This document shows positions 3,001 through 23,425 of a stretch of 64,000 nt of DNA, one piece after another; the first letter of the stretch is position 1; each line of letters begins with the position of its first letter. The notes below the pieces were generated by a model. The model was not told where the DNA came from and searched no databases. It was given only the letters and a program-made list of their open reading frames with translations. The DNA is from Gemmatimonadota bacterium. GTDB taxonomy: Bacteria > Gemmatimonadota > Gemmatimonadetes > Palauibacterales > Palauibacteraceae. The position numbers and the translations under genes are program-made. The stretch lies in the NCBI GenBank assembly GCA_963666735.1, contig OY762926.1:2495319-2559318 (forward strand), read 5' to 3'.

Positions 3001-3682
3001 CCCGAATCGGTCGGGTGAGGCGCCATGGTCGGCGGCGCCCGCGGCCCATCGCCGGTCTCCGGTCCGCTTCGACGCCGCGCCCGCCCGCACCGAGCGCCGG
3101 GCCGGCTGGAACGTCGTGCTCGAATACAAACCGGACCGCGCCCCCGCCGACGCCCTGCGCCGGGCCTGCCTCATCGACCTCAGCCACCGCGCGCGCTGGG
3201 ACGTCCAGCATCGGGACATCGGGACCCTGCGGCCGTTCGGCCTCGACGTCCCGCCCAGGGCCGGAGACGTCGCGGTGCGGGACGGACTGATGATCAACCG
3301 GATGAACGGGACCCAGGCCTCGATCTGGCACGTCGGACCCGGCGCGGCCCCGGCCACGCCCGACGGGCCGCACTACACGGACACGACCGACGCGCACTGC
3401 TGGCTCGCCCTGCTCGGAGACTCCGTTCCGGAAGTGCTGGAGAGCGTCACCGATCTCGACCTCTTCGAACCGGGGCGCCCCCGGCCGGTCCTGACCCAGG
3501 GGCCGATCCTCCACGTCCCCTGCCAGATCGTCACCTGGCGTGAGCATCTCGTCCTCATCGCCTGCAGCCGGGGGTACGGACAGACCTTCGTCGAAGCGCT
3601 CCTCGAATCCGGGCGCCACGCGGGGCTGCGCCCGGCCGGCGAGCGCGTCTTCACCGATTGGATTCACGCGCTGGAGAGCTGA
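2..3682 (+). CDS. soxA: Sarcosine oxidase alpha subunit (NAD/FAD-binding N-terminus plus GcvT-like folate-binding domain) continuing in frame into a sarcosine oxidase gamma-subunit-like C-terminal ~200 aa; N-terminus at window edge (GTG at 2 plausible start)
   Basis: N-terminal EGFEGDTVASALWGAGV...EYHRPRG matches SoxA; central aminomethyltransferase-like block (GLLDSSPLGKFRIWGPDA...); tail after ...PPHFYDPKGTRLR resembles SoxG; single uninterrupted ORF. Confidence 0.75.
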   Translation: MSRLPLSSTERIDRSRPLGFRWCGRALEGFEGDTVASALWGAGVRTFGRSLEYHRPRGLYDLEGEGSSQLVSINGVPNQSAGTTPLREGMEVGAQNVRGDPRFDAFGFLDRLDRFMPAGFYYRLFHRPAWAARFFQERMRGLAGLGVLRLDAPDGARAGERAGERAERYLNADVAVVGGGPAGMSAALEAGRLGLRVCLFERRPWLGGHLDWRVRDGRPLAAEVSALAEELGRMPSVRVFRHAPVTGVWGENLLTGFQRGGTTHWECRARAIVVATGSIERPLVFEHNDRPGVMQVDTAIRLARTYGVRPGAAAAFSVGDDLGLEAAADLAAVGVDVRVVADARRDGHDPDLMAALSSARIDFRPGWAASRVRGRSRVRGVELAARAGSGTAGDSLRVACDLLVATAGRQPDIGVLSCAGARFRHGERTRTFELERLPPDVFAAGGVLRLTDLEALTCSGRIAGLKAAAACGASVGGPLTRERARLDDLPGPAEGSSIVRGPAAGRGLAPGRKAFLDLDEDGTWKNAAQSAAYGFDVPELAKRFGNFGLGPGQYRVPGQNLAMAMAEIAGRPVGSFAATTVRPPVIPPSLATLAGPNHDVHKQTPLHEDQASRGAVFRRAGHWLRARYFSADRQCLEEIRNVRENVGLLDSSPLGKFRIWGPDALRALQRVYVSDMTRARPGRCTYSAMCNDTGNIIDDGVVVRTGEDEFYFTTSSSRAGVTVEWLRFHTRYDGWDYNLVNLTDALASINVAGPNARRVLGRITDADLSDEAFPYLGCREIEVGDGVAARCLRLGFVGELSYELHVGASYARYVWDLVWEGGAEYGIRPFGLEAQNCLRSEKGHVIIGTESEQRVTLIDIGMGWLWDRGDTASGKVGAAALRHCEEQPGRLKLVGLRVDDPADRDAGATGNRDVAHRPGDGALVVDGDRIAGFVCTTRHSETLGWQYGLALVEDRLAERGRSLDLYESLGRRAARSTATVVPPHFYDPKGTRLRIAPGGRPNRSGEAPWSAAPAAHRRSPVRFDAAPARTERRAGWNVVLEYKPDRAPADALRRACLIDLSHRARWDVQHRDIGTLRPFGLDVPPRAGDVAVRDGLMINRMNGTQASIWHVGPGAAPATPDGPHYTDTTDAHCWLALLGDSVPEVLESVTDLDLFEPGRPRPVLTQGPILHVPCQIVTWREHLVLIACSRGYGQTFVEALLESGRHAGLRPAGERVFTDWIHALES

Positions 3683-3706
3683 GACGTTCCCGGACGACGG
3701 TTGTTT

Positions 3707-4978
3707 TCACTCGAATGACGCGCAACCAGACGTGAGAACCGGAGCGCCGCTGTCCGTTTCGGCGCGCAATCTCACGACGATCTCCACATCGAAAGCGTCC
3801 CTCGTGACGGCCAGCAGCCGACCTCCGCGATACGGAAGCCACGGGACGGCGTCCAAGGGTAGATCAGGCGTTGCCACCCCGAGGTGCCGCCCGCAGGGAT
3901 CGAAGATGTCCCATGCATCATCGTTCGGGTTGGAACTCCAGAGCCTCACCCACAACCACCCGTCGGGACCAGCCTTGATGTCTCGGATGAGTGGCTTGTG
4001 CGCCGGGAGCCCTGCGGCCGAGAAGGGTGACGATTCCGCGAGATCAGCACGTTCGCGTCCGGTCAGTGGGACTGGGACGCGGGGCAGCTTCACGGTCCGA
4101 ACGGTGTCGCCGCCGAGAGTGACGCGATGGAGAGCGTAGTCCGGGGCCCCCACTCGCCAAATCTCTCCGCCCGGATCGACGGTCCACGGCGTCTCTACGT
4201 GCATGGGCCGCGTCTGCATCACGTTGCCGCGTGCGCCGCCTCGGCTGACGGTTTGCCCGACCCGATACTCGACCCGGCCGAGGAGTAGCCTCCCCGCCGC
4301 CGAGACGGTGCCATCTTCCGACACCGCCAGCCTCTCGACCCAGGACTCGTGCACGAGCCGGGAAAACTCCCTCTCGACCAAGTCGAGACGGCGGCCATAG
4401 ATCCCCCCGAGGGTATCGGCGTGTGGAGTCCATGCAGCGTTGCCGGGCAACCGGTGCGCGACATCGCCTCCATTGCCCAGGGAGTCCACGAAGAACAGTG
4501 TGGGCGTGGCGCCAATCCAGAGCCGGTGCGGTTCCTGCCAGAGAAGGTTGAAGGGGAAAACGGATGCCGGGATTTGCCCTGGGCCGGGGCCGCGACGAGT
4601 GACGACGCGAAGGAAAGTCCCATCCGCGCCGAAGGAGCGAACCTCGCCCGCCGCGTAGTCGCCCACGTAGACGGATCCGGCTTGGTCAATGGCGAGCGAT
4701 CCCACGTTACCGAACACGTCGGGCCCAGTAGACACTATCGACCCGATCCTCAACTCCTCGACCAAGCGGAGGGGCAGCGCGCCACCCGGATCGGGGTTGC
4801 TCACGATGACGCGACCCGTCGGGAGCGTGTCCGGGAGCACGCCCCCCCGTCCCCCGTCCCCCGCGCACGCGACGAAGCCCGCAACTACAAGGAGGAAGAA
4901 GAGGGCTGGCCGCGCTAACGCGACCAGCCCCGGTGTTGAACGCTCAGCTACGTCCGTAAGGGTGGGTCGCGCTTGCAT
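3707..4978 (-). CDS. Secreted/lipoprotein 6-bladed beta-propeller (NHL/TolB-like) protein; paralog of 39568..40752 and of the partial gene at window end
   Basis: N-terminal hydrophobic segment with ...ACAGDGG, repeated ...DG..yv.D... beta-propeller-like motifs; similarity to other two copies in window. Confidence 0.45.
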   Translation of the reverse strand: MQARPTLTDVAERSTPGLVALARPALFFLLVVAGFVACAGDGGRGGVLPDTLPTGRVIVSNPDPGGALPLRLVEELRIGSIVSTGPDVFGNVGSLAIDQAGSVYVGDYAAGEVRSFGADGTFLRVVTRRGPGPGQIPASVFPFNLLWQEPHRLWIGATPTLFFVDSLGNGGDVAHRLPGNAAWTPHADTLGGIYGRRLDLVEREFSRLVHESWVERLAVSEDGTVSAAGRLLLGRVEYRVGQTVSRGGARGNVMQTRPMHVETPWTVDPGGEIWRVGAPDYALHRVTLGGDTVRTVKLPRVPVPLTGRERADLAESSPFSAAGLPAHKPLIRDIKAGPDGWLWVRLWSSNPNDDAWDIFDPCGRHLGVATPDLPLDAVPWLPYRGGRLLAVTRDAFDVEIVVRLRAETDSGAPVLTSGCASFE

Positions 4979-5693: not shown

Positions 5694-5897
5694 CGCCAAC
5701 AAGAATCGGAGACAGCGGGGAGAACAAATCGCGCCGTACACAACATGATACCATCTCGTAAGTTGAAGAAACAACAGCACCTTACGAAGGCGATACCGTA
5801 CCCCCTCGGGGTTCTTTAGCGCAAGCGGCCGAGTAGAAGACGGAGTAGAAGACCCTGGGGTCGCGAGCGAAGTTATTTCCGAGCTCGGCCCGAGGAC

Positions 5898-7025
5898 TCA
5901 GCCCGCGGCGGCGAGGGCCCGGTCCAGATCTTCCTTCAGGTCCTCGGCGTGCTCGAGGCCGACGGACATCCGGAGCAGGTTCTCCGGCGCACGGGTCGCC
6001 GCCCCCTCGATCGAGGCCCGGTGCTCGATGAGGGAGTGGGTGCCCCCGAGACTCGTCGCGCGGGCGATGATCTTCACCGCGGCGGCGACCGCGAAGGCCT
6101 CCTCCCGACCACCCGTCACATCGAACGACAGCATGCCGCCGAAGCCGGACATCTGACGCGCCGCGAGGCCGTGTCCCGGATCGTCCTCCAGACCCGGGTA
6201 GTGGACCCGCTCGACGCGCGGGTGGGCGTCGAGGAAGCGGGCAAGTTCCATGGCGTTGGCGCAGTGCATGGCCATGCGCGCGGCGAGGGATTCGAGTCCC
6301 CGTCTCGTGAGCCAGGCGTCGAAGGGCGACGGTACCAGGCCGCCATCCTTCTGGATCCCCCGCAGCGCTTCAAGCGTCTCGCCCCGCTCGCGCGCGATCA
6401 CCGCACCCCCGGTCACGTCGCTGTGGCCGCCGAAGTACTTGGTCGTGGAGTGCATGACGAGGTCCACCCCGAGCTCCAGCGGCCGCTGCAGAAGCGGCGT
6501 CGCCCACGTGTTGTCGCAGCACGAGATCGCCCGGCCCTCACGCGCGATGCCGGCGATCGCCTCGACGTCGGAGATGCGGATGAGCGGGTTCGACGGCGTC
6601 TCCATCCATACGAGGCGGGTGTTCGGCCTCATGGCGACCCGTACGGCGTCGAGGTCGGTCATATCGACGAAGCTCGCCTCGATCCCGCGCCGCGCGAACT
6701 GCTCCCGCAGGAGTACGCCGGTCCCGAAGTACGCGTCGTCCGCGGCGACGACGTGGTCCCCCGGCGCAAGGGAGAAGATGACGGAAAACGTCGCCGCCAT
6801 CCCGGAGGGGAAAGCGATGGCTTCCGGCCCGCCCTCCAGCGCGGCCAGCGCCGCCTCCAGCGCGGCCCGGTTCGGGTTCCCGCTGCGGGAGTAGTCGAAC
6901 CCCCCGGGGTACGACCCGTCCGCGCCGCGCTCGAAGGTGGTCGAGAGCGTGATCGGGGGCGCGATCGCCCGGCTCGTCCCGTCCGGATCCAAGCCCGTCT
7001 TCACCGCCAGCGTTTCAATTCGCAT
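5898..7025 (-). CDS. PLP-dependent Cys/Met metabolism enzyme (cystathionine gamma-synthase / beta-lyase family)
   Basis: HSTTKYFGGHSD lysine motif region, SGNPNR..., typical length 375 aa. Confidence 0.8.
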   Translation of the reverse strand: MRIETLAVKTGLDPDGTSRAIAPPITLSTTFERGADGSYPGGFDYSRSGNPNRAALEAALAALEGGPEAIAFPSGMAATFSVIFSLAPGDHVVAADDAYFGTGVLLREQFARRGIEASFVDMTDLDAVRVAMRPNTRLVWMETPSNPLIRISDVEAIAGIAREGRAISCCDNTWATPLLQRPLELGVDLVMHSTTKYFGGHSDVTGGAVIARERGETLEALRGIQKDGGLVPSPFDAWLTRRGLESLAARMAMHCANAMELARFLDAHPRVERVHYPGLEDDPGHGLAARQMSGFGGMLSFDVTGGREEAFAVAAAVKIIARATSLGGTHSLIEHRASIEGAATRAPENLLRMSVGLEHAEDLKEDLDRALAAAG

Positions 7026-15178: not shown

Positions 15179-15601
15179 ATGTTCGTCCTCGACACGAATG
15201 TCGTCTCGGAGTTGATGCGCGGAGTCCCGCAGCCTGAAGTGCTTGCGTGGGTCGACGACCGTGCGAGGCGCGATTTGTTCGTCACCGCGATTACGGAAGC
15301 GGAAGTTCGAACCGGGATCGCCATTCTGCCGGCCGGCAGGCGCCGGCGGGACCTGGCGCATGTGGCGGATCGGTTCTTCGCGGACTTCTTCACAAACCGA
15401 GTGCTGCCGTTCGATGCTTCGGCGGCGAGAGCGTACGCGGTGATCACCGCCGGGCGACGGGCCGCGGGACGCCCGATCGGTCAACTCGACTGTCAGATCG
15501 CGGCCGTCACTCGTTGCCGAGGCGCAGCCCTGGCGACGCGAAACGTGAGGGATTTCGAGGGTACCGGGATCGATGTCCTGGATCCCTGGGCCGCAGTCTG
15601 A
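15179..15601 (+). CDS. vapC: VapC PIN-domain ribonuclease toxin
   Basis: MFVLDTNVVSEL... PIN acidic residues; 10 nt after antitoxin. Confidence 0.8.
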   Translation: MFVLDTNVVSELMRGVPQPEVLAWVDDRARRDLFVTAITEAEVRTGIAILPAGRRRRDLAHVADRFFADFFTNRVLPFDASAARAYAVITAGRRAAGRPIGQLDCQIAAVTRCRGAALATRNVRDFEGTGIDVLDPWAAV

Positions 15602-15659
15602 CAGCAACTTGCCCGGCATCCTGCGGGAGGTGCGGCTTCTCCATGGGCTCCGGGGGCGC

Positions 15660-17330
15660 ATGCGTGACGGGGTGCGGCTCTCGGCGGATGTCTATCTGCC
15701 CGCTTCCGGAGGCCCTTTCCCCGCCATCCTGACGCGGACGCCTTACGAGAGCGGCCGGGACGTATTCGTCGAGAACGGCGTGTGGTGGGCGGAGCGCGGG
15801 TACGCGTTCGTGGTGCAGGACTGTCGCGGGCGGTCCGAGTCCGAGGGCGTATTCCACGCGTATCTCCCCGAGATCGAGGACGGGTACGACACCCTGGAGT
15901 GGCTGGCCGGGCAGGCGTGGTGCGACGGGAAGATCGGAATGTGGGGGCGCAGCTACGGCGGCCTCACGCAGTGGCTGAGCGCGCCGCTCGGGAGCCCGCA
16001 CCTCACCTGCATGGCGCCGCATGTGATCTGCGACGACCACTTCGGGGACTGTCACTACCTCGGCGGCGCCTTCCAACTGCTTCTGTCGCTCGGCGCGGCC
16101 GTGATCTGGGAGACGAACCTCGCGACCGTGACAGGCCCGCAGGCCGCGCGCCTGTTTCAGAACCCGAAGTTCTGGGCCCACCTGCCCATCATCGAGATGG
16201 ACGAGCGCGCGATCGGGCGGAAGATCCCGTACTGGAGGGAATGGCTGGAACACCCGACGCGGGACGAGTACTGGCGTCGGCTCCGGGTCACGGATCGCTA
16301 CGACCGCGTCACGGCGCCGGTGTTTCAGCAGGGCGGCTGGTACGACGCGTATTCGGGTTCGCTGCTTCGAATGCACGAGGGGATGTCGGGCGCCGCGACC
16401 CCGCGCGCCCGCACGCAGAGCCGGAGCCTGCTCGGACCCTGGTCGCACGAGATCCCGGAGACGAGGACGGTCGGGGACCTCGACTTCGGACCCGGCGCCT
16501 GGGTGGACGTGCGGAAGGAGGAGCGGCGCTGGTTCGACTGGCAGCTTCGCGGCATGGACGACGGGATCGGTGAAGACCCGCCGTTGCGCTGGTTCACGAC
16601 GGGTGCCAACCGGTGGCGGGGCGGCGCGGGGTGGCCGCCGCCGGGGACGGAGGAAGTGCCTTGGTATCTGCACAGCGACGGGCGCGCGAACCGGGACGAC
16701 GACGCGCGCCTCGATCCGGAGCCGCCGGGGGACGAACCCCCCGACCGCTTCGAGTACGATCCGCGCGATCCGGCGCCCTCGCTCGGGGGCAATCTCTCTT
16801 CCCGGCTGATCACGACCCACGCCGAGACGCCGATGCGGGGCGGTCCCGTCGAGCAGGCGCCGATCGAGCGGCGGCCCGACGTGCTTGTCTATACGTCGCC
16901 GGCTCTGGAGGACGATCTCGAGGTCACGGGGCCGGTCGAGGTGGTGCTTTACGCCGAGTCGTCGGGGCCGGACACGGACTTCGTGGCGCGGGTGACGGAT
17001 GTCGATCCGGCGGGGGGATCATTCGTGCTGACGGAGGGGATCCTGCGCGCACGGTATCGCGGCGGGTTGAGCCGGACCGAACTGCTCGAGCCCGGCGAGG
17101 CGGCGGAGCTCCGGATCCGGCTCTACCCGATGAGCCATGTGTTCCGGGCCGGCCACCGGATCCGGCTTCAGGTCACGAGCAGTTGCTTCCCCCGCTTCAG
17201 TCGCAATCTCAACACCGGCGAAGACGTGGGGACCGGCACCCGCATGCGGACGGCCCGCAACACGGTGCTGCACTCGACGGCCTGTCCCTCGCACGTCCTG
17301 CTGCCGGTCCGCGCGGGCTCATCCGGCTGA
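15660..17330 (+). CDS. CocE/NonD family hydrolase (second paralog); alternative start 15573
   Basis: MRDGVRLSADVYLP, GRSYGG, C-terminal galactose-binding-like domain. Confidence 0.75.
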   Translation: MRDGVRLSADVYLPASGGPFPAILTRTPYESGRDVFVENGVWWAERGYAFVVQDCRGRSESEGVFHAYLPEIEDGYDTLEWLAGQAWCDGKIGMWGRSYGGLTQWLSAPLGSPHLTCMAPHVICDDHFGDCHYLGGAFQLLLSLGAAVIWETNLATVTGPQAARLFQNPKFWAHLPIIEMDERAIGRKIPYWREWLEHPTRDEYWRRLRVTDRYDRVTAPVFQQGGWYDAYSGSLLRMHEGMSGAATPRARTQSRSLLGPWSHEIPETRTVGDLDFGPGAWVDVRKEERRWFDWQLRGMDDGIGEDPPLRWFTTGANRWRGGAGWPPPGTEEVPWYLHSDGRANRDDDARLDPEPPGDEPPDRFEYDPRDPAPSLGGNLSSRLITTHAETPMRGGPVEQAPIERRPDVLVYTSPALEDDLEVTGPVEVVLYAESSGPDTDFVARVTDVDPAGGSFVLTEGILRARYRGGLSRTELLEPGEAAELRIRLYPMSHVFRAGHRIRLQVTSSCFPRFSRNLNTGEDVGTGTRMRTARNTVLHSTACPSHVLLPVRAGSSG

Positions 17331-18347
17331 ACTCGCCAGGTGCCGCGGTTCGGTCGCCGGGAGCGTCTCCCTCAGAGCGACCTCGTAGGCGGGCGAGTGG
17401 AGCAGAAACGCATCGTGTCCGGCCTCCGAGCGCAGGAGGCGAAGTCCCGCCGGCGCCCCGGCCCGGCGCGCCGTCTCCGTTATCAGCCAGGACGGGACGA
17501 GGGTGTCCTCCTCCCACCCGATGAACCACGCGGGCACCGCAAGATCTTCCGGCCTCAACTCGCACAGGTCGATGGACGCGGACAGGGTCAGATAGGTCTC
17601 GGCATCGAACCGTTCCGCGAACTCATCGCCGCGTTTCCGCAGAAAACGGTCGATGGCGTGGACCGGCGTCCCGTCCTCCCACTCCCAGTCGAACGGGAAG
17701 CGGGCATCGAGTCCCTCGGTCGACTTGTAGGTGGTGAACGCCAACGCCCGCGCCAGCGCCACACCCTCGCGACTCCGCCCCTGCCGGATCGCGAACTCCA
17801 CGACTCGTCGCTGCACGGAGCGCACGCCGGTCGCCTGCGCGTGGCCGCGGTGCGCGGCGCCGATCAGGACGACGCCGTCCGCGCGGGCGGGTCGGCGGCA
17901 ACCGAGAGCCAGCGCGACCATGCCGCCGTACGACGCGCCCAGGACACGGTGCACCCGCCGCGCGCCAAGGTGATCTAGCAGGGCGACGACGGCATTCGCC
18001 TGGTCGCCGGGAGTCACGTGCAACCGTCCCGGGGGTTCGACGGTGCCCGGCGACCCGAGGAAGTCGAACCCCAGCACCTGCCACCGGCCGGTGTCGATGG
18101 CCAGGCCCGGGCCCACGAGTTTTCGCCACCAGCCCGGCGAAGGGTCCAGTGCGTTGGCGCAGACGTGGCGGTTGGCGGAGATCCCGCCCGCGACGACGAG
18201 GAGAGGGGCATCCTCGGCGCCGGCGATCTCGTATCGCACCCGGAAACGCGCGTCGACGGCAGTGTCCAGTTCCGGTCTCCACGTAGCCGGCATCGGGACG
18301 CTGCCCCGTCGCCCCACCGGCAGCCCTTCTGGTAGCACGGCGTTCAA
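17319..18347 (-). CDS. metX: Homoserine O-acetyltransferase (alpha/beta hydrolase); likely true start ATG at 18293 (track start is TTG)
   Basis: GWW..LVGPGLAIDTGRW...NFLGSPGT and GASYGGMVALALG match MetX signatures. Confidence 0.7.
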   Translation of the reverse strand: MNAVLPEGLPVGRRGSVPMPATWRPELDTAVDARFRVRYEIAGAEDAPLLVVAGGISANRHVCANALDPSPGWWRKLVGPGLAIDTGRWQVLGFDFLGSPGTVEPPGRLHVTPGDQANAVVALLDHLGARRVHRVLGASYGGMVALALGCRRPARADGVVLIGAAHRGHAQATGVRSVQRRVVEFAIRQGRSREGVALARALAFTTYKSTEGLDARFPFDWEWEDGTPVHAIDRFLRKRGDEFAERFDAETYLTLSASIDLCELRPEDLAVPAWFIGWEEDTLVPSWLITETARRAGAPAGLRLLRSEAGHDAFLLHSPAYEVALRETLPATEPRHLASSAG

Positions 18348-18424
18348 CCTGTCTCTCCGTCGCGGGTCGCGTCTGTGGTTCGCGACGCCAACTCCGGAGC
18401 AGTCGACCGACCCGTGCGGGTGCG

Positions 18425-18549
18425 ACGCTCATCTCTCGGATCCCCGTTCGAGGGTCCGCAGGAGTTGGCACCGCTGGGCGTGCATGTGGGCATGCATGCC
18501 CCGGTTGCCCCGGCTTCAAAGGGCCCGTCCCTCAGCCGGTCTCGATGAG
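18425..18549 (-). ncRNA. SAM-I (S-box) riboswitch aptamer in 5' leader of metX
   Basis: Minus-strand reading CUCAUCGAGACCGGCUGAGGGACGGGCCCUUUGAAGCCGGGGCAACC...GGUGCCAACUCCUGCGGAC...GAGAUGAG matches S-box consensus incl. P1 pairing. Confidence 0.7.
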
Positions 18550-18683
18550 TAGCTGCCGAAGCTCGCGGCTCCGGCAACGGGCGTCAAGAAATGCTCGGCG
18601 CGCGCCGCCCCGGCCCCCGGCACGCGCCTCTCCGGCGAATAGTTGACGGGGGGCCCACGACCCGGTACCCTCTGCCCGCTAAC

Positions 18684-18800
18684 GCTCATCGAGACCGGTC
18701 GAGGGACAGGCCCGAAGACACCGGGGCAACCTGTGGAAGGTGGCTCTTCCACTGATGTGCCAACTCCTGCGACGGATGCAATCCGTTGGTAGATGAGTCG
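18684..18800 (+). ncRNA. SAM-I (S-box) riboswitch aptamer in 5' leader of aspartokinase-like/metY operon
   Basis: CUCAUCGAGACCGGUCGAGGGACAGGCCCGAAGACACCGGGGCAACC...GGUGCCAACUCCUGCGACGG...GAUGAG; P1 closes CUCAUC/GAUGAG. Confidence 0.75.
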
Positions 18801-18810
18801 CCCGCTGCGC

Positions 18811-18852
18811 TTCGTTGCGCGGCCGCTGTTTGTTCCCAGGGCGTCGCTTCTC
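18811..18852 (+). terminator. Candidate riboswitch expression-platform terminator hairpin (GCTGCGC-ttcgtt-GCGCGGC followed by tgtttgtt)
   Basis: 7-bp stem with one GU plus U-rich tract directly after aptamer. Confidence 0.3.
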
Positions 18853-18897
18853 CGGAGTCCGCTGAGTGTGCACCGAGACTCGGGGGGAGGCGTTTCA

Positions 18898-19671
18898 TTG
18901 CGCGAAGTTCACCGCGTTCACGTACTCAAGTTCGGTTCATCCGTGCTGGCGCGTCCGGCCGCATACCGGTCGGTGGCCGAGGAGATCCGGACCGAAGTCG
19001 CCGGGGGCGCGAAAGTCGTCGCGGTCGTGTCGGCGATGGGTGACACCACCGACGACCTGCTCGCCGCGGCGCGCGAACTCGCTCCGTCACTCCCCGACCA
19101 TCTCATGGGATCTCTCCTGGCGACGGGCGAAGAGGCGTCCGTCGCGCTTCTCCGTCTCGCGCTCGCGACGGCGCGCGTCCGTGCCCTCGACATGTCGTTC
19201 TGGCGCCTGCCGCTCCGCACCCGGGGCCCGCTCGGCGCCGCCGATCCCGTCGACGTGGACGTCCACCGGATCGAAACGGCCCTCGCGGCCCACGATGCGG
19301 TCGTTCTTCCCGGGTTCGTGGGCGTCGACGCGACGGGCGTCACGTCGCTGCTCGGCAGGGGGGGATCGGACCTCACGGCGATCTTCCTCGGGCATGCCCT
19401 GGGCGCCGCCGCGATCCGTCTCGTGAAGGATGTGGACGGCATCTTTCCGGCCGACCCGAAACGGTTCCCGGACATCGCGCCGCTGCGCAGGGCGACATGG
19501 AGCGAGGCGCGGCGGACGGCCGGCGGCGTCGTTCAGGATCGGGCCCTGCGTTTCGCCCAGCGCCACCGCATCCCGTTTCGCGTGGCGGCGCCCGGCGGCA
19601 CGGGCACGTGGGTCGGCCGGCACGATTCGACGAACACCGAATTCCGTCTCGCGGGCTGCGCGCGCGGCTGA
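18898..19671 (+). CDS. Amino-acid kinase family protein, aspartokinase-like but short (no ACT domains); start reassigned to TTG 18898 with GGGAGG SD
   Basis: VLKFGSSVLARP...VVAVVSAMGDTTDDLL N-terminal AAK motifs; track start 18793 lies inside riboswitch P1. Confidence 0.55.
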   Translation: MREVHRVHVLKFGSSVLARPAAYRSVAEEIRTEVAGGAKVVAVVSAMGDTTDDLLAAARELAPSLPDHLMGSLLATGEEASVALLRLALATARVRALDMSFWRLPLRTRGPLGAADPVDVDVHRIETALAAHDAVVLPGFVGVDATGVTSLLGRGGSDLTAIFLGHALGAAAIRLVKDVDGIFPADPKRFPDIAPLRRATWSEARRTAGGVVQDRALRFAQRHRIPFRVAAPGGTGTWVGRHDSTNTEFRLAGCARG

Positions 19672-19788
19672 TGAACACGAGTACCGGTCCGCGTTCCACG
19701 GCCGTTCCGCAGCGATGAGACGGTCGGCCGGAGGCGCGGACATTCACCGCCCGAGAGATCGGGCACCACCGGAGAGAAGACGGAGATC

Positions 19789-21084
19789 ATGAGAGACGAA
19801 ACTGTAGCGATCCACCTCGGATACGATTCCGAGCCCACGACGCACGCCGTCGCGGTGCCGCTGTACCAGACCGTGGCGTACGAGTTCGACGACGCGCAGC
19901 ACGGCGCGGACCTCTTCAACCTCGAGGTCGAGGGCAACATCTACTCCCGCATCATGAACCCCACGCAGGCCGTGCTGGAGGAGCGGCTTGCCCAGCTCGA
20001 ACGCGGCCTGGCGACGCTTGCGCTCTCCTCGGGCAGCGCGGCCGTCAACTATTCGATCCTCAACCTCGCCGCCTCCGGGGACAACATCGTCTCGGTGCCC
20101 CAGTTGTACGGCGGCACGTACACGCTCTTCGCCCACATGCTGCCGCAGCTGGGCATCGAAGTGCGCTTCGCCGACGGCGACGGCGCGGACGATCTGGCTA
20201 AGCTGATCGATGACCGGACGAAGGCCGTGTTCGTCGAAAGCATCGGGAACCCGGCGGGTAATATCGTGGACCTCGCGGCGGTGGCCGACGCGGCGCACGC
20301 CCACGGCGTCGCCACCATCGTGGACAACACGGTCGCCAGCCCGGCGCTCCTCAAGCCGATCGAACACGGGTTCGACATCGTGGTGCACTCGCTGACGAAG
20401 TACATCGGCGGGCACGGCAACTCGCTCGGCGGCGCGATCGTCGATTCCGGGAAATTCCCGTGGACGGAGCACGCGAGCCGCTACCCGCAGTTCACGACGC
20501 CGGAACCCAGCTACCACGGAGTCGTCTACACGGAGGCGCTGGGGCCGGCCGCGTACATCGGGCGGGCGCGCACGGTGCCGCTGCGCAACACGGGGTCGGC
20601 GATCTCGCCCTTCAACGCGTTCCAGATCATCCAGGGGATCCAGACGCTGAACCTCCGCGTCGAGCGCCACTCCGAGAACGCGCTCGCGGTGGCGAAGCAC
20701 CTGAAGGACCACCCGGCCGTGGAGTGGGTGAGCTACGCCGGACTGCCGGGCGATCCGTACCACGACCTGGCCCTCAAGTACCTGGGCGGCCGGGCCTCGG
20801 GGATCCTGACGTTCGGGGTGAAGGGCGGCTTCGAGGCGGGCGTGAAGTTCTACGACGCGCTCGAGCTGTTCAAGCGGCTCGTGAACATCGGGGATGCCAA
20901 GTCGCTGGCGTGCCATCCGGCGTCCACGACGCACCGGCAGCTCACCGAGGAAGAGCAGCTCAGCGTCGGCGTGCGTCCGGAGACCATCCGGCTCTCCGTA
21001 GGCATCGAGCACATCGATGACATCATCGAGGACCTCGACCGCGCGCTGGACGGGGCGTCGTCCGCCCGGCCGGCCGCGGCGTAA
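19789..21084 (+). CDS. metY: O-acetylhomoserine sulfhydrylase / aminocarboxypropyltransferase
   Basis: 431 aa, HSLTKYIGGHGNSLGGAIVDSGKFPW, strong full-length match. Confidence 0.9.
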   Translation: MRDETVAIHLGYDSEPTTHAVAVPLYQTVAYEFDDAQHGADLFNLEVEGNIYSRIMNPTQAVLEERLAQLERGLATLALSSGSAAVNYSILNLAASGDNIVSVPQLYGGTYTLFAHMLPQLGIEVRFADGDGADDLAKLIDDRTKAVFVESIGNPAGNIVDLAAVADAAHAHGVATIVDNTVASPALLKPIEHGFDIVVHSLTKYIGGHGNSLGGAIVDSGKFPWTEHASRYPQFTTPEPSYHGVVYTEALGPAAYIGRARTVPLRNTGSAISPFNAFQIIQGIQTLNLRVERHSENALAVAKHLKDHPAVEWVSYAGLPGDPYHDLALKYLGGRASGILTFGVKGGFEAGVKFYDALELFKRLVNIGDAKSLACHPASTTHRQLTEEEQLSVGVRPETIRLSVGIEHIDDIIEDLDRALDGASSARPAAA

Positions 21085-21106
21085 CCGGCCCGCCCGGACG
21101 CCCGCC

Positions 21107-21139
21107 ACCGGCCCTCCGCGGATCCACCTTTCCGCGGAG
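21107..21139 (+). terminator. Perfect 10-bp hairpin CCCTCCGCGG-atccaccttt-CCGCGGAGGG after metY
   Basis: Inverted repeat seen directly; no U-tract so rho-independence uncertain. Confidence 0.3.
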
Positions 21140-21199
21140 GGCTGAGCGGCAGGTCAATCCGGACGGCTGGCCGGCGGGTCAATCCGGCGGCAGCCGCCG

Positions 21200-22999
21200 T
21201 TGACGGTCGGCCGGGACGCCGGCTACGGTGGCGCTCGCCCGGCTCGGTTGCGGCCACCTCATACGGCGACCTCATCGCGGGAGCGTCTCCAGACCTTGAG
21301 CGCCCTGGATTGGCTGATCGTCCTCGGACTGAACGGTGCGATCATCGCCTACGGGCTGCGCCGCGCACGCGGCACCTCCACGAGCGGCGAGTGGTTCCTG
21401 AGTTCGCGCGCGCTGCCGTGGTGGGCCGTCGGCCTGTCCCTCTTCGCGACCAACATGGACAACTCGGAGTTCGTGTCGGCCACGGGGACGATCGCGAGCG
21501 AGGGCCTGCATTTCCTCTCCGCGCACACGTTCGGCGGACTCATCGGGGTCACGATCGCGACCTTCGTGATCGTCCCCGCCATGTATCGCGCGGGGCTGTA
21601 CACCAACTCCGAGTACCTCGAGCACCGCTTCGGTCCCGGGACCCGCGTGCTCGGCGCACTGATCCAGATCCAGTACCGGACCTCCGTGCTGGGACTCATG
21701 ATCTGGGCCGTCCACCTGACCCTGGTCGGGGTCGGCGGGCTGAGACCGGGACTGTCCTGGGCGCTGATCGTGTCGCTCGTCGTCCTGTCGGGCGTCTACA
21801 CGGCCGTTGGCGGGTTGCGGGCGGTCGTGGCGACGGACGTGCTGCAGAGCGTGCTCGTGATGGCGGGAGGTCTCGCGGTGTGCGTCGCCGTCTGGCAGGC
21901 CGCGGGCGGGTGGGACGCGATGGTCGCCCAACTGGAGGGCCTGGGGACGACGGCCGAGGGACTGGCGCCGGGACTCGCCGCCGCGGACCTGGCCCATGTG
22001 GGCGCCTTCCGGGGACGGGACGGGACCACGTCGCCGGCCGTGATCTTCATCGCGTGGATTCTCATCTCCTCCGGCTGGTGGACCGTGAGCCACACGTCCA
22101 CTCAGCGGATGATGGGGGCCCGCTCGCTGTGGGACATGAAGATGGCCGGGGTGCTCGGCGCGGGCGCGAGCCTCGTCATCCTGCTCTTCACGGACATGCT
22201 CGGACTCTTCGGGCGCGCACAGTTCCCGGATTTCGCCCGGCCCGACGAAATGTACCCGCACCTGATCTCCACCTATCTCGGGACCGGCGCCAAGGGGCTG
22301 GTCGTGGCCGGGGTCGTGAGCGCTGCGGTGAGCACCTTCGACTCGATGGGGTCGTCGATGTCGGCCGTCTTCACGCGCGACATCTACGCGCGCTTCATCT
22401 CGCGGGACCGCGACGACGCCCACTACCTCCGCGCGGGACGCATCGCGACCATCGCGATCCTGGTGCTGGGGTTCGCCTACCTGCCGCTGATCCTGCGGGC
22501 GCCGACGATGCTCGCCGCCTTCCGCTCGGTCACATCGGTGTTCGTCACGCCGCTCCTCATCGTCTACCTGGTCGGCGCCGTGACGCGTACGAACCGGCGA
22601 GTGGGAATCGCCGGCCTGGCGACGGGCGGACTGTACGGGGTCGTCGGTTTCGTGGACCGCGAGGTGGTCGACGTCTCCTGGCTGCCCTCCTGGCTGACCG
22701 GACAGTGGGAGGCGTTCGTGTGGGCGGTCGCGTTCACGGCAGCGGGCTGCGCCTTTGCGGCGCTACACCCGCGCTGGCGCAGGTCGGCCGGCGTGCTGGC
22801 GAGCGGCGGCGAAGCGGCGCCCCCCGGTGATGCGCCGCCTCCCGGCGCCGGCGACTGGCTGGCGAAGAGTTCCGGCGAACTCGGCCCGATCCGGCTCCAC
22901 CCCTTCAGAGAGCGCGTGCCGTTGCTGGCCAGCCCCGCGCTCTACACGGGAATCCTCCTGGCGATTTCAGCGTGGCTCGTCTTCGGCGTCTTCTGGTGA
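21200..22999 (+). CDS. Sodium:solute symporter family transporter; possible TTG start at 21296
   Basis: Multiple TM helices, SSF motifs (GEWFLSSRALPWWAVGLSLFATNM...). Confidence 0.7.
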   Translation: MTVGRDAGYGGARPARLRPPHTATSSRERLQTLSALDWLIVLGLNGAIIAYGLRRARGTSTSGEWFLSSRALPWWAVGLSLFATNMDNSEFVSATGTIASEGLHFLSAHTFGGLIGVTIATFVIVPAMYRAGLYTNSEYLEHRFGPGTRVLGALIQIQYRTSVLGLMIWAVHLTLVGVGGLRPGLSWALIVSLVVLSGVYTAVGGLRAVVATDVLQSVLVMAGGLAVCVAVWQAAGGWDAMVAQLEGLGTTAEGLAPGLAAADLAHVGAFRGRDGTTSPAVIFIAWILISSGWWTVSHTSTQRMMGARSLWDMKMAGVLGAGASLVILLFTDMLGLFGRAQFPDFARPDEMYPHLISTYLGTGAKGLVVAGVVSAAVSTFDSMGSSMSAVFTRDIYARFISRDRDDAHYLRAGRIATIAILVLGFAYLPLILRAPTMLAAFRSVTSVFVTPLLIVYLVGAVTRTNRRVGIAGLATGGLYGVVGFVDREVVDVSWLPSWLTGQWEAFVWAVAFTAAGCAFAALHPRWRRSAGVLASGGEAAPPGDAPPPGAGDWLAKSSGELGPIRLHPFRERVPLLASPALYTGILLAISAWLVFGVFW

Positions 23000-23131
23000 C
23001 CGCAGTCGTGGCGCGAGGGGTGACACTGGCGCGCCGCCCACCCGGACCACAGCCTTGGGCGACGCCGAAGTGAAGTCGGCGGCAGTCCGTGGCAGATCCG
23101 GCGCAATTCGGACCCGCACGCTGGGAGACCC

Positions 23132-23425
23132 ATGAATCAACGCGCAGCAGACCGCGACCACCTGGCGTACTGGCGCCGCAACCTCCGTTACCTGGGGGGC
23201 CTCCTCGCGATCTGGGCTCTGGTGTCCTTCGGCGCGGGCATCCTGTTCGCCGGCGCGCTCGACACGGTCAGGATCCCGGGCACGGGCTTCCCCCTCGGGT
23301 TCTGGTTCGCGCAGCAGGGCTCCATCTACGTCTTCGTCGTCCTCATCTTCGTCTACGTCTTCCTCATGAACCGGCTCGACCGGGAGTTCGACGTGGACGA
23401 GCGTGACGAGGAGGGCACGGCATGA
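23132..23425 (+). CDS. DUF4212 small membrane protein (putative solute:sodium symporter small subunit)
   Basis: 97 aa, two TM helices, ATGA-coupled to following SSF transporter as typical. Confidence 0.7.
   Translation: MNQRAADRDHLAYWRRNLRYLGGLLAIWALVSFGAGILFAGALDTVRIPGTGFPLGFWFAQQGSIYVFVVLIFVYVFLMNRLDREFDVDERDEEGTA

Follow-up and report, generated by a model that had tools for sequence, protein, structure and literature searches.

Two S-adenosylmethionine (SAM) riboswitches that lie back to back between divergent genes raise the question of whether both are genuine and, if so, by what means each acts on its own transcript. The case at issue is in the window, a 64-kb stretch of a marine Gemmatimonadota genome (contig OY762926.1), where an aptamer of the SAM-I (S-box) class is present in the sense strand of the 5′ leader of methionine-pathway genes on each strand. 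As a preliminary description of this DNA had assigned them, the minus-strand aptamer leads a gene for a MetX-type acyltransferase and the plus-strand aptamer a gene for an aspartokinase-like protein (here the kinase gene), followed by metY. On the criteria of aptamer identity, gene content, conservation and pairing potential, the region contains two independent, genuine SAM-I riboswitches. SAM binding, the promoters, the ON-state pairings and the translational output of both are what we infer. The folding models make it probable that both are functional OFF switches acting mainly on translation initiation, one on metX and the other on the kinase gene and metY, and control at this level, in preference to transcription termination, is the most likely from the sequence comparisons and modelling considered below.

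The identity of the aptamers is the simplest part of the answer. An Rfam cmscan of the whole window at gathering thresholds gave exactly two matches, each to SAM-I (RF00162) over model positions 1-108 of 108 and each with a score (Table 1) far over the gathering score of 44.4, and permissive rescanning of 18300-18950 (E<=5) gave no match besides these two. A covariance-model scan of this sort is the check for which the preliminary description had asked, and both strands pass it. The S-box core strings quoted in the preliminary description are found on both strands, where the core stretches agree with the RF00162 consensus at high posterior probability. Helix P1 of the plus-strand aptamer is formed by 18684-18690 paired with 18792-18798. 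With 71 related leaders aligned and folded by RNAalifold, P2, P3 and P4 covary and P1 is invariant; the P2 columns 19:41, for instance, are CG in 44 leaders, UA in 16 and UG in 11, and in P3 and P4 many pairs are altered on both sides. For the minus-strand aptamer, P3 has compensatory variation among 11 orthologues. At the level of the aptamer both elements are plain RF00162 members with nothing divergent, and their recognition is routine annotation; the full four-helix aptamer, the conserved core, the location in methionine-gene 5′ leaders and the OFF logic are all those of the family. (In two other loci, at L019:1512-1627 and L027:1538-1674, an insert of 13-30 nt is present in aptamer P4, with scores still of 64-68 bits.)

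How the two copies relate to each other is a separate matter. They span 18426-18799, the measured 374 bp agreeing with an earlier estimate of ~375 bp, within a start-to-start intergenic region of 550 bp (18348-18897). Their cores had been called near-identical, which is fair for the 5′ 47 nt (83% identity, in inverted orientation) but overstated for the aptamers over their whole length (67%). The further description of them as duplicated sensors does not survive comparison with other genera, as the plus-strand aptamer is 81-85% identical to the aptamers of loci L013, L014 and L030. Since it is nearer to these than to its neighbor, with which it groups less well, recent duplication of the aptamer is ruled out as the origin of the pair. 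It is also very improbable that one of the two is a decaying relic without regulation. Both are full length at 73-79 bits with intact platforms, and in orthologues both are conserved more strongly than adjacent coding DNA, even if truncation of the metX-side riboswitch in L010 to its first ~40 nt means that loss does occur in the clade. Tandem SAM riboswitches (PMC12452182) likewise bring a pair of same-ligand sensors to within a few hundred bases of each other, but there on one transcript and for the same gene; with opposite strands, separate transcripts and separate targets, no cooperative logic is implied here.

Classical Firmicute and Geobacter S-boxes use transcription termination (PMC545781), and the preliminary description had proposed attenuation for the plus strand, where a GC hairpin and a U-rich tract follow the aptamer. 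The corresponding mechanism is that SAM lets the hairpin at 18804-18823 (H1) and its U-rich tract terminate the plus transcript. The hairpin exists, and a terminator-like site with tail CGCTGTTTGT is called there; however, one site in 800 nt is not above shuffle expectation (0.3 +/- 0.6), and its U-run is offset by three bases from the stem. Comparison is less favorable still to such attenuation. The U-tract is present in the window and L001 only, being missing in 11 of 13 orthologues whose aptamers and Shine-Dalgarno (SD) hairpins are otherwise invariant, and H1 with its tail is the most variable segment of the leader in these 13, the aptamer and distal platform being invariant. Across the 71 leaders, six of the seven H1 pairs have compensatory changes; the hairpin, nested in a helix, b:b', that is itself 98.6% paired, is followed order-wide by AGCCGGAAGUAC rather than by U's. 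Folds of the plus leader revealed no antiterminator in which the P1 3′ strand takes part, and no hairpin-plus-U terminators were found at gene ends in 15400-23300. In the broader family, a hairpin and U-run occur within 260 nt downstream of 23 of 82 aptamers, several of these being the SD hairpin and then UUUCAUUG. Intrinsic termination as the conserved plus-strand mechanism is rejected, given that the U-tract is unconserved and H1 is a structural helix, and SAM-directed attenuation in the classical manner is improbable; some minor intrinsic termination may nevertheless occur in this particular genome. For the minus leader, the terminator scan revealed neither U-tract nor terminator. The aptamer class, and metX as a common target, are shared with the classical leaders (Bacillus; Geobacter metX and metIC; PMC545781), but their strong hairpin with poly-U has no conserved counterpart in these leaders, whose expression platform is not of the terminator/antiterminator type of Bacillus S-boxes.

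What is conserved 3′ of the plus-strand aptamer is an ordered series of pairing elements: b, H1, b', anti-SD (UCUCC), e (GGAGUC), f, a short loop, e' (GACUC), SD and start codon. In the RNAalifold consensus of the 71 leaders the aptamer, b:b', H1 and the SD sequestor all reappear, this last helix (anti-SD and e with e' and SD) being 92% paired. In leaders of the plus type the SD is GGAGA or GGAGG, and f has the consensus CGAUGAG (CGCUGAG in Palauibacter). This f element repeats the sequence of the P1 3′ strand, and e-f has its complement in the P1 5′ strand plus J1/2 (CUCAUCG-A-GAC; 18684-18695). The candidate ON-state helix formed by these two strands is 90.5% paired in the alignment of 71 leaders, compared with 31-46% for partners shifted out of register. 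Further pair types number 11, as against 8.3 +/- 0.9 in shuffles (1 of 500 reaching 11), the covariation score is 0.065 as against 0.050 (0 of 500 shuffles) and, for the plus type, there are five compensatory cells; the column 5 : column 240 pair is CG in 64 leaders, UA in four, GC in one and UG in one. In 19 leaders reading GAUGAA or GAUGAU, column 5, the outer C of P1, is unpaired with its own 3′ partner (column 152) and the platform copy reads GAUGAG. Judged by complementarity, the platform in at least these 19 would pair the P1 5′ strand better than does P1's own 3′ strand.

Energetically, the two states of the plus leader are close, at -89.3 kcal/mol with the aptamer enforced and -90.5 kcal/mol with the ON helix enforced, and the predicted probability that the GGAGG is unpaired goes from 0.01 in the former to 0.8-0.9 in the latter. 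Two near-isoenergetic states tipped by ligand are the requirement of a thermodynamic translational switch. Two other ways of linking aptamer to initiation were considered for this leader and discarded. A classical anti-sequestor via the P1 3′ strand has weak complementarity to the anti-SD in plus and consensus leaders (5/6 with a bulge in the window; 3/6 in the consensus). Pairing of f just upstream of the start codon (an anti-start, as in Xanthomonas campestris) is present in some leaders (GAUGA:UCAUC), is not conserved and is weak in the window.

The minus-strand platform shares CUCCGGAGU with that of the plus strand and is otherwise different. In the aptamer-formed RNAfold structure CUCCG:CGGAG involves the SD, and UCGAC:GUUGA the start. 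With 11 orthologues, RNAalifold pairs GGAGUUGGCGUC with the G of the start codon and the first 14 nt of the metX coding sequence (CDS), and it pairs the P1 3′ strand, GAG-CGUCG, with CGAC-CUC, i.e. with the anti-SD. A second potential exchange is provided by GGAGUUGG in the platform, the exact complement of the aptamer core CCAACUCC. The aptamer state has an energy of -98.0 kcal/mol and that with the P1-3′/anti-SD helix enforced -96.5 kcal/mol; in the latter CCAACUCC:GGAGUUGG is recruited, the start codon becomes accessible (0.84-0.88) and so, in part, does the SD. As modelled, the minus platform is of the classical anti-sequestor design.

Put together, the favored mechanism would have both RNAs transcribed outward from back-to-back promoters between 18552 and 18682. 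Binding of SAM would close P1, permit folding of a platform of ~100 nt and pair the anti-SD with the SD, by CUUCUCC-GGAGUC with GACUC-GGGGAGG on the plus strand and by CUCC(G) with (C)GGAG on the minus strand, where GGAGUUGGCGUC would also cover the start codon and early CDS. When SAM is absent, elements of the platform would be captured by aptamer strands, leaving the SD free. For the plus RNA the capturing strands would be P1 5′ and J1/2, pairing with GGAGUC-CGCUGAGU (18854-18867); for the minus RNA, CGAC-CUC would be paired with the P1 3′ strand and GGAGUUGG with the core CCAACUCC. A translation block may also be only the first step, with the main loss of expression coming from Rho-dependent termination or mRNA decay. 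This is compatible with translational switching and is a possibility of lesser standing: both leaders are long, C-rich and without intrinsic terminators; metY lacks its own riboswitch, so that its co-regulation would depend on polarity; and Rho-dependent termination was left open by the authors of the Xanthomonas study for their system (PMC7270179).

Several considerations weigh against a translational switch of this kind. For both RNAs the support is comparative and thermodynamic. The unconstrained minimum free energy (MFE) structure of the plus leader, at -97.6 kcal/mol, is a third one in which the SD is paired, and the Palauibacter version of the plus ON helix is interrupted by one U x C mismatch (GCUGAG for GAUGAG). 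Covariation in the ON helix rests on ~5 sequences, perhaps from three lineages, and the conservation of f could be due in part to pairing that this element also undergoes within the platform itself. The pairings of the minus leader, being invariant, have no covariation to support them, and in the window genome a hairpin and UGUUUGUU do sit 3′ of the plus aptamer. As to the MFE, unconstrained folds of entire leaders are uninformative, that of the plus leader having a z-score of -0.96 and a misfolded aptamer.

The closest characterized system is SAM-I(Xcc) of Xanthomonas campestris, which controls metX(A)-metB-hom mainly at translation (Tang et al. 2020, Nat Commun; PMC7270179). It has no terminator; its platform hairpin sequesters the SD and AUG, and without SAM the SD stays sequestered until uncharged initiator tRNA binds the anti-SD (PMC7270179). 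Shared with it, as read here from sequence alone, are a translational mode, a leader of ~200 nt without an intrinsic terminator, sequestration of the SD (and start codon) by anti-SD and anti-start platform elements, and as target a metX of the Xanthomonas succinyltransferase type, with metB also in most Longimicrobiales operons. The primer tables of that study, which give partial sequence, have CCAUCGAGACC as 5′ strand and a platform ending ...GCAAGCUCGAUGGCCGAUCCACCCCGGAUAUCGCCAUG (PMC7270179). Within the part so given, CUCGAUGG in the platform repeats the P1 3′ strand and so has complementarity to CCAUCGAG, the P1 5′ strand, as is the case with the platform copy here, and it would pair with that strand in SAM-free RNA. 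The differences are that platform sequence and helix layout are dissimilar, with no demonstrable homology beyond the f element; that the downstream genes are aspartokinase-like and asd rather than hom; that Palauibacter has two divergent units, with a riboswitch apiece, in place of the one operon; and that initiator-tRNA sensing is known only for Xanthomonas (PMC7270179).

This precedent prompts consideration of the platform as a second sensor, the SD staying sequestered without SAM until a trans factor binds the anti-SD. The SD is paired in every unconstrained or partial fold, mirroring the Xcc anti-SD hairpin that persists without SAM (PMC7270179), and the loops and stems of the platform are invariant across 13 genomes while H1 varies. 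Yet the ON-state helix found suffices on paper to free the SD, and alignment of the Xcc platform with those of this clade does not extend past the f element, so a second-sensor role for the platform is judged unlikely. It is equally unlikely, in the broader form of the proposal, that the ~100-nt Longimicrobiales platform senses, e.g., uncharged initiator tRNA and so puts the aspartokinase/asd module under combined SAM and translation-status control. If it did, RNA-level sensing would replace the ACT-domain allostery that governs aspartate-pathway entry elsewhere.

The translational SAM-I switch is embedded in a regulon whose layout is variable. A genome scan gave 80 loci with the kinase, from Palauibacter, other Longimicrobiales and Gemmatimonadota and a few Vicinamibacteria/Acidobacteriota, many of them sponge-derived. 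The window, which at the protein level has 97% identity to a Candidatus Palauibacter metagenome-assembled genome (MAG), is on protein similarity a member of that taxon, which has been described (PMC10469786). A SAM-clan riboswitch is present upstream on the kinase strand in 75 of the 80 loci (69 SAM-I and six SAM-I/IV by Rfam scan); of the five without a match, at least two, L035 and L068, are on short contigs that end inside metX, so that a riboswitch would fall past the contig end. That riboswitches of this kind would be unusual for a Gram-negative-like, high-GC genome, as the preliminary description had it, fails because of this frequency and because S-boxes ahead of metX in Gram-negative bacteria have been known since 2004 (Geobacter, PMC545781), Xanthomonas being a further precedent (PMC7270179).

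The commonest layout is a single operon of SAM-I, metX, metB, kinase and asd, its metB specifying cystathionine gamma-synthase (TIGR02080, 512 bits), and the metX and metB of Longimicrobiales score best against NF006449 and NF006450, two models derived from Xanthomonas. Other arrangements are a single SAM-I (3621-3737) followed by kinase, asd, metX and metB (L057); two tandem same-strand units, each with its own SAM-I (3630-3749 and 5990-6108; L066); and SAM-I, kinase and asd alone (L013, L014, L030). In Palauibacter (the window, L001-L008, L011 and L012) the layout is divergent, with metY replacing metB. The divergent riboswitch pair is kept in 10 of 12 close Palauibacter relatives, the metX-side SAM-I being retained, at 71-87 bits, in L001-L008, L011 and L012. 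By this comparison of loci the divergent pair is one lineage's arrangement of a regulon in which SAM control is always retained. Conservation within the genus is pronounced: the plus leader (18630-18912) is 93% identical across 13 genomes and the surrounding 4 kb ~84% at the DNA level, with the plus aptamer itself ~100% invariant in these 13 and MetX at ~70% protein identity.

Several side observations were made in these genomes. In L010 (a Ca. Palauibacter irciniicola MAG; 3617-3786, minus), the remainder of the metX-side aptamer, its platform and the SD are deleted, either a natural switch loss or an assembly artefact. Within Palauibacter the identity of MetY is 96-97%, and with MetY of Vicinamibacteria/Acidobacteriota sponge MAGs (L044, L045, L050, L051, L054, L056) it is 84-86%, the adjacent kinase being only 62-64% identical to theirs, which suggests that metY moved horizontally between sponge symbionts or that there was a binning error. 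An apparent fusion of a pyridoxal-phosphate (PLP) enzyme with the kinase in L018 (675-aa open reading frame, ORF) was dismissed, as two genes in different frames are involved and the long ORF is a high-GC artefact.

Table 1. Coordinates of the riboswitch elements, promoter-like sequences and genes of the divergent methionine locus, in window positions
Feature	Position	Strand	Support or remark
SAM-I aptamer (S-box) before metX	18551..18426	minus	RF00162 78.8 bits, E 7e-17, full length
SAM-I aptamer before aspartokinase-like gene	18683..18799	plus	RF00162 73.2 bits, E 3e-15, full length
Helix b:b' (CGCCC 18799-18803 : GGGCG 18839-18843) around hairpin H1 (18804-18823)	18799..18843	plus	RNAalifold
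SD-sequestering hairpin	18847..18890	plus	invariant in 13 orthologues
Anti-SD, CUUCUCC	18847-18853	plus	
e, GGAGUC	18854-18859	plus	
f, CGCUGAGU	18860-18867	plus	
e', GACUC	18877-18881	plus	
SD, GGAGG	18886-18890	plus	
Expression platform, minus riboswitch	18348..18425	minus	nearly invariant in 11 orthologues
Anti-SD, CUCC	18399..18396	minus	
GGAGUUGGCGUC	18395..18384	minus	
SD, GGAGAG	18358..18353	minus	
Promoter-like, metX leader: -35 TTGACG 18587..18582, -10-like GAGCTT 18564..18559	18559..18587	minus	alignment reading
Promoter-like, plus leader: -35 TTGACG 18643-18648, 17-nt spacer, -10 TACCCT 18666-18671	18643..18671	plus	alignment reading
metX-like homoserine O-acyltransferase CDS, 342 aa, start TTG 18347	17319..18347	minus	NF006449 and Pfam
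Aspartokinase-like CDS, 257 aa, start TTG	18898..19671	plus	Pfam AA_kinase only
metY (O-acetylhomoserine sulfhydrylase family)	19789..21084	plus	TIGR01326 628 bits vs cutoff 495
Sodium:solute symporter (SSF)	21200..22999	plus	Pfam SSF; TIGR00813 173.6 bits

The position of the riboswitches bears on the starts of the genes that follow. Translation of the kinase is assigned to TTG 18898, 7 nt past GGGGGGAGG (18882-18890), and not to the ATG at 18793 used by the ORF track; as the preliminary description had pointed out, that ATG (18793-18795) is covered by the P1 3′ strand (18792-18798). The downstream TTG that it proposed is borne out by orthologues, the codon being GTG in L004 and L009, and by the coincident N-termini of the orthologous proteins, which begin MREV(H/R)RVHVLKFGSS. 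For metX the ATG at 18296 was dropped in favor of TTG 18347, given the alternation of TTG and GTG among orthologues, an in-frame 12-nt indel just downstream and a GGAGAG SD 5 nt 5′ of the TTG (GGAGA(G/A) in orthologues).

The best NCBIfam match of the metX product is to NF006449, 'homoserine O-succinyltransferase MetX' (Xanthomonas-type), at 286.9 bits vs a cutoff of 296 (the L018 orthologue clears it with 322.7 bits), and its Pfam domain is Abhydrolase_1 (alpha/beta hydrolase). The notion in the preliminary description that the whole direct-sulfhydrylation route is under control went further than this, as MetX is nearest to a succinyltransferase model and just under its cutoff. At its 3′ end metX overlaps by 12 nt (17319-17330) a convergent gene for a hydrolase of the CocE/NonD family (15573-17330; TIGR00976, 436 bits), and no terminator-like site lies between these convergent ends. 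The terminator scan also found no such site in the gap between the kinase gene and metY, which are probably co-transcribed. The symporter gene is downstream of metY in most Palauibacter loci and has no terminator-like site ahead of it; its membership of the metY operon is uncertain.

Each aptamer is preceded at equal distance by an invariant TTGAC. On the metX side this is followed 17 nt on by a hexamer (nAnnnT) that keeps A2 and T6 in 12 orthologues; on the plus side TTGAC and TAnCCT are invariant in 13. These are putative promoters from their conservation and spacing, and a sigma-70 scan calls neither of them (the plus one being below threshold).

The kinase merits separate comment. Its only Pfam match is AA_kinase (PF00696, E 4e-32), with no ACT domain; every NCBIfam aspartate kinase model hits it, all below cutoff (e.g. 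156.6 vs 376; 152.9 vs 208.7). In the 421-aa C. glutamicum aspartokinase 3aaw the part that aligns with it is residues 5-232, and the catalytic motifs SAMGDTTD, GE (LLxxGE), GRGGSD (LGRGGSD) and DVDG are retained. The top 120 homologues (236-368 aa) likewise have PF00696 only and no ACT domain. On these sequence features it is classed as 'aspartokinase-like' and not as a family member, having the motifs without the ACT domains and scoring short of the curated cutoffs. The family to which it belongs, of ~255 aa and unnamed by the sources, shows KFGSS without variation instead of KFGG(S/T)S. In ~50 of the 80 loci asd directly follows the kinase gene; the riboswitch that controls the kinase gene is SAM-I in Gemmatimonadota and SAM-I/IV in Acidobacteriota MAGs. 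Because the catalytic motifs are kept and ACT domains are absent, the simplest reading of the sequences is that this would be a methionine-dedicated aspartokinase whose control has shifted from allostery to the riboswitch.

Within Palauibacter asd lies between the kinase gene and metY in all other loci; the window and L001 have lost it by a clean deletion, and the 64-kb window contains no asd at all. In alignment the window matches L003 to 4734 and resumes at 5753 (absent, L003:4735-5752; window 19614-19788). The 118-nt gap between the kinase gene and metY is the scar of this deletion, which changes the C-terminus of the kinase in the lineage of the window and L001.

Control of an aspartokinase isozyme by its end product at the level of expression is familiar from lysC under the lysine riboswitch. 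In E. coli it is represented by metL (AKII-HDHII), a member of the MetJ/SAM regulon (PMC3228920), which has in common with the present case a branch-dedicated aspartokinase subject to end-product control via gene expression, whether this replaces allostery or adds to it. The protein considered here differs from those of metL and lysC in being the catalytic domain alone, with neither ACT domain nor fusion, and in being paired with asd under a SAM riboswitch. Literature searches for a SAM-riboswitch-controlled or ACT-less aspartokinase returned nothing relevant.

As regards the riboswitch class, which is well known, the pair adds examples from Gemmatimonadota (Palauibacterales/Longimicrobiales) and corrects two gene starts. 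The occurrence of the regulon as single operon, tandem units or divergent units, with a riboswitch per unit, illustrates reshuffling of riboswitch-gene units. Some 70 natural variants of a translational SAM-I platform, with evidence for strand exchange between P1 5′ and platform, constitute a comparative data set for a mechanism whose study has until now been confined to Xanthomonas. Of most interest among the by-products is the riboswitch-controlled aspartokinase/asd module without a regulatory domain: an aspartokinase-type family of ~255 aa that is ACT-less, almost always beside asd and, in two phyla, under SAM-I or SAM-I/IV control. The module suggests a methionine-dedicated entry to the aspartate pathway that would be governed by RNA rather than by allostery.

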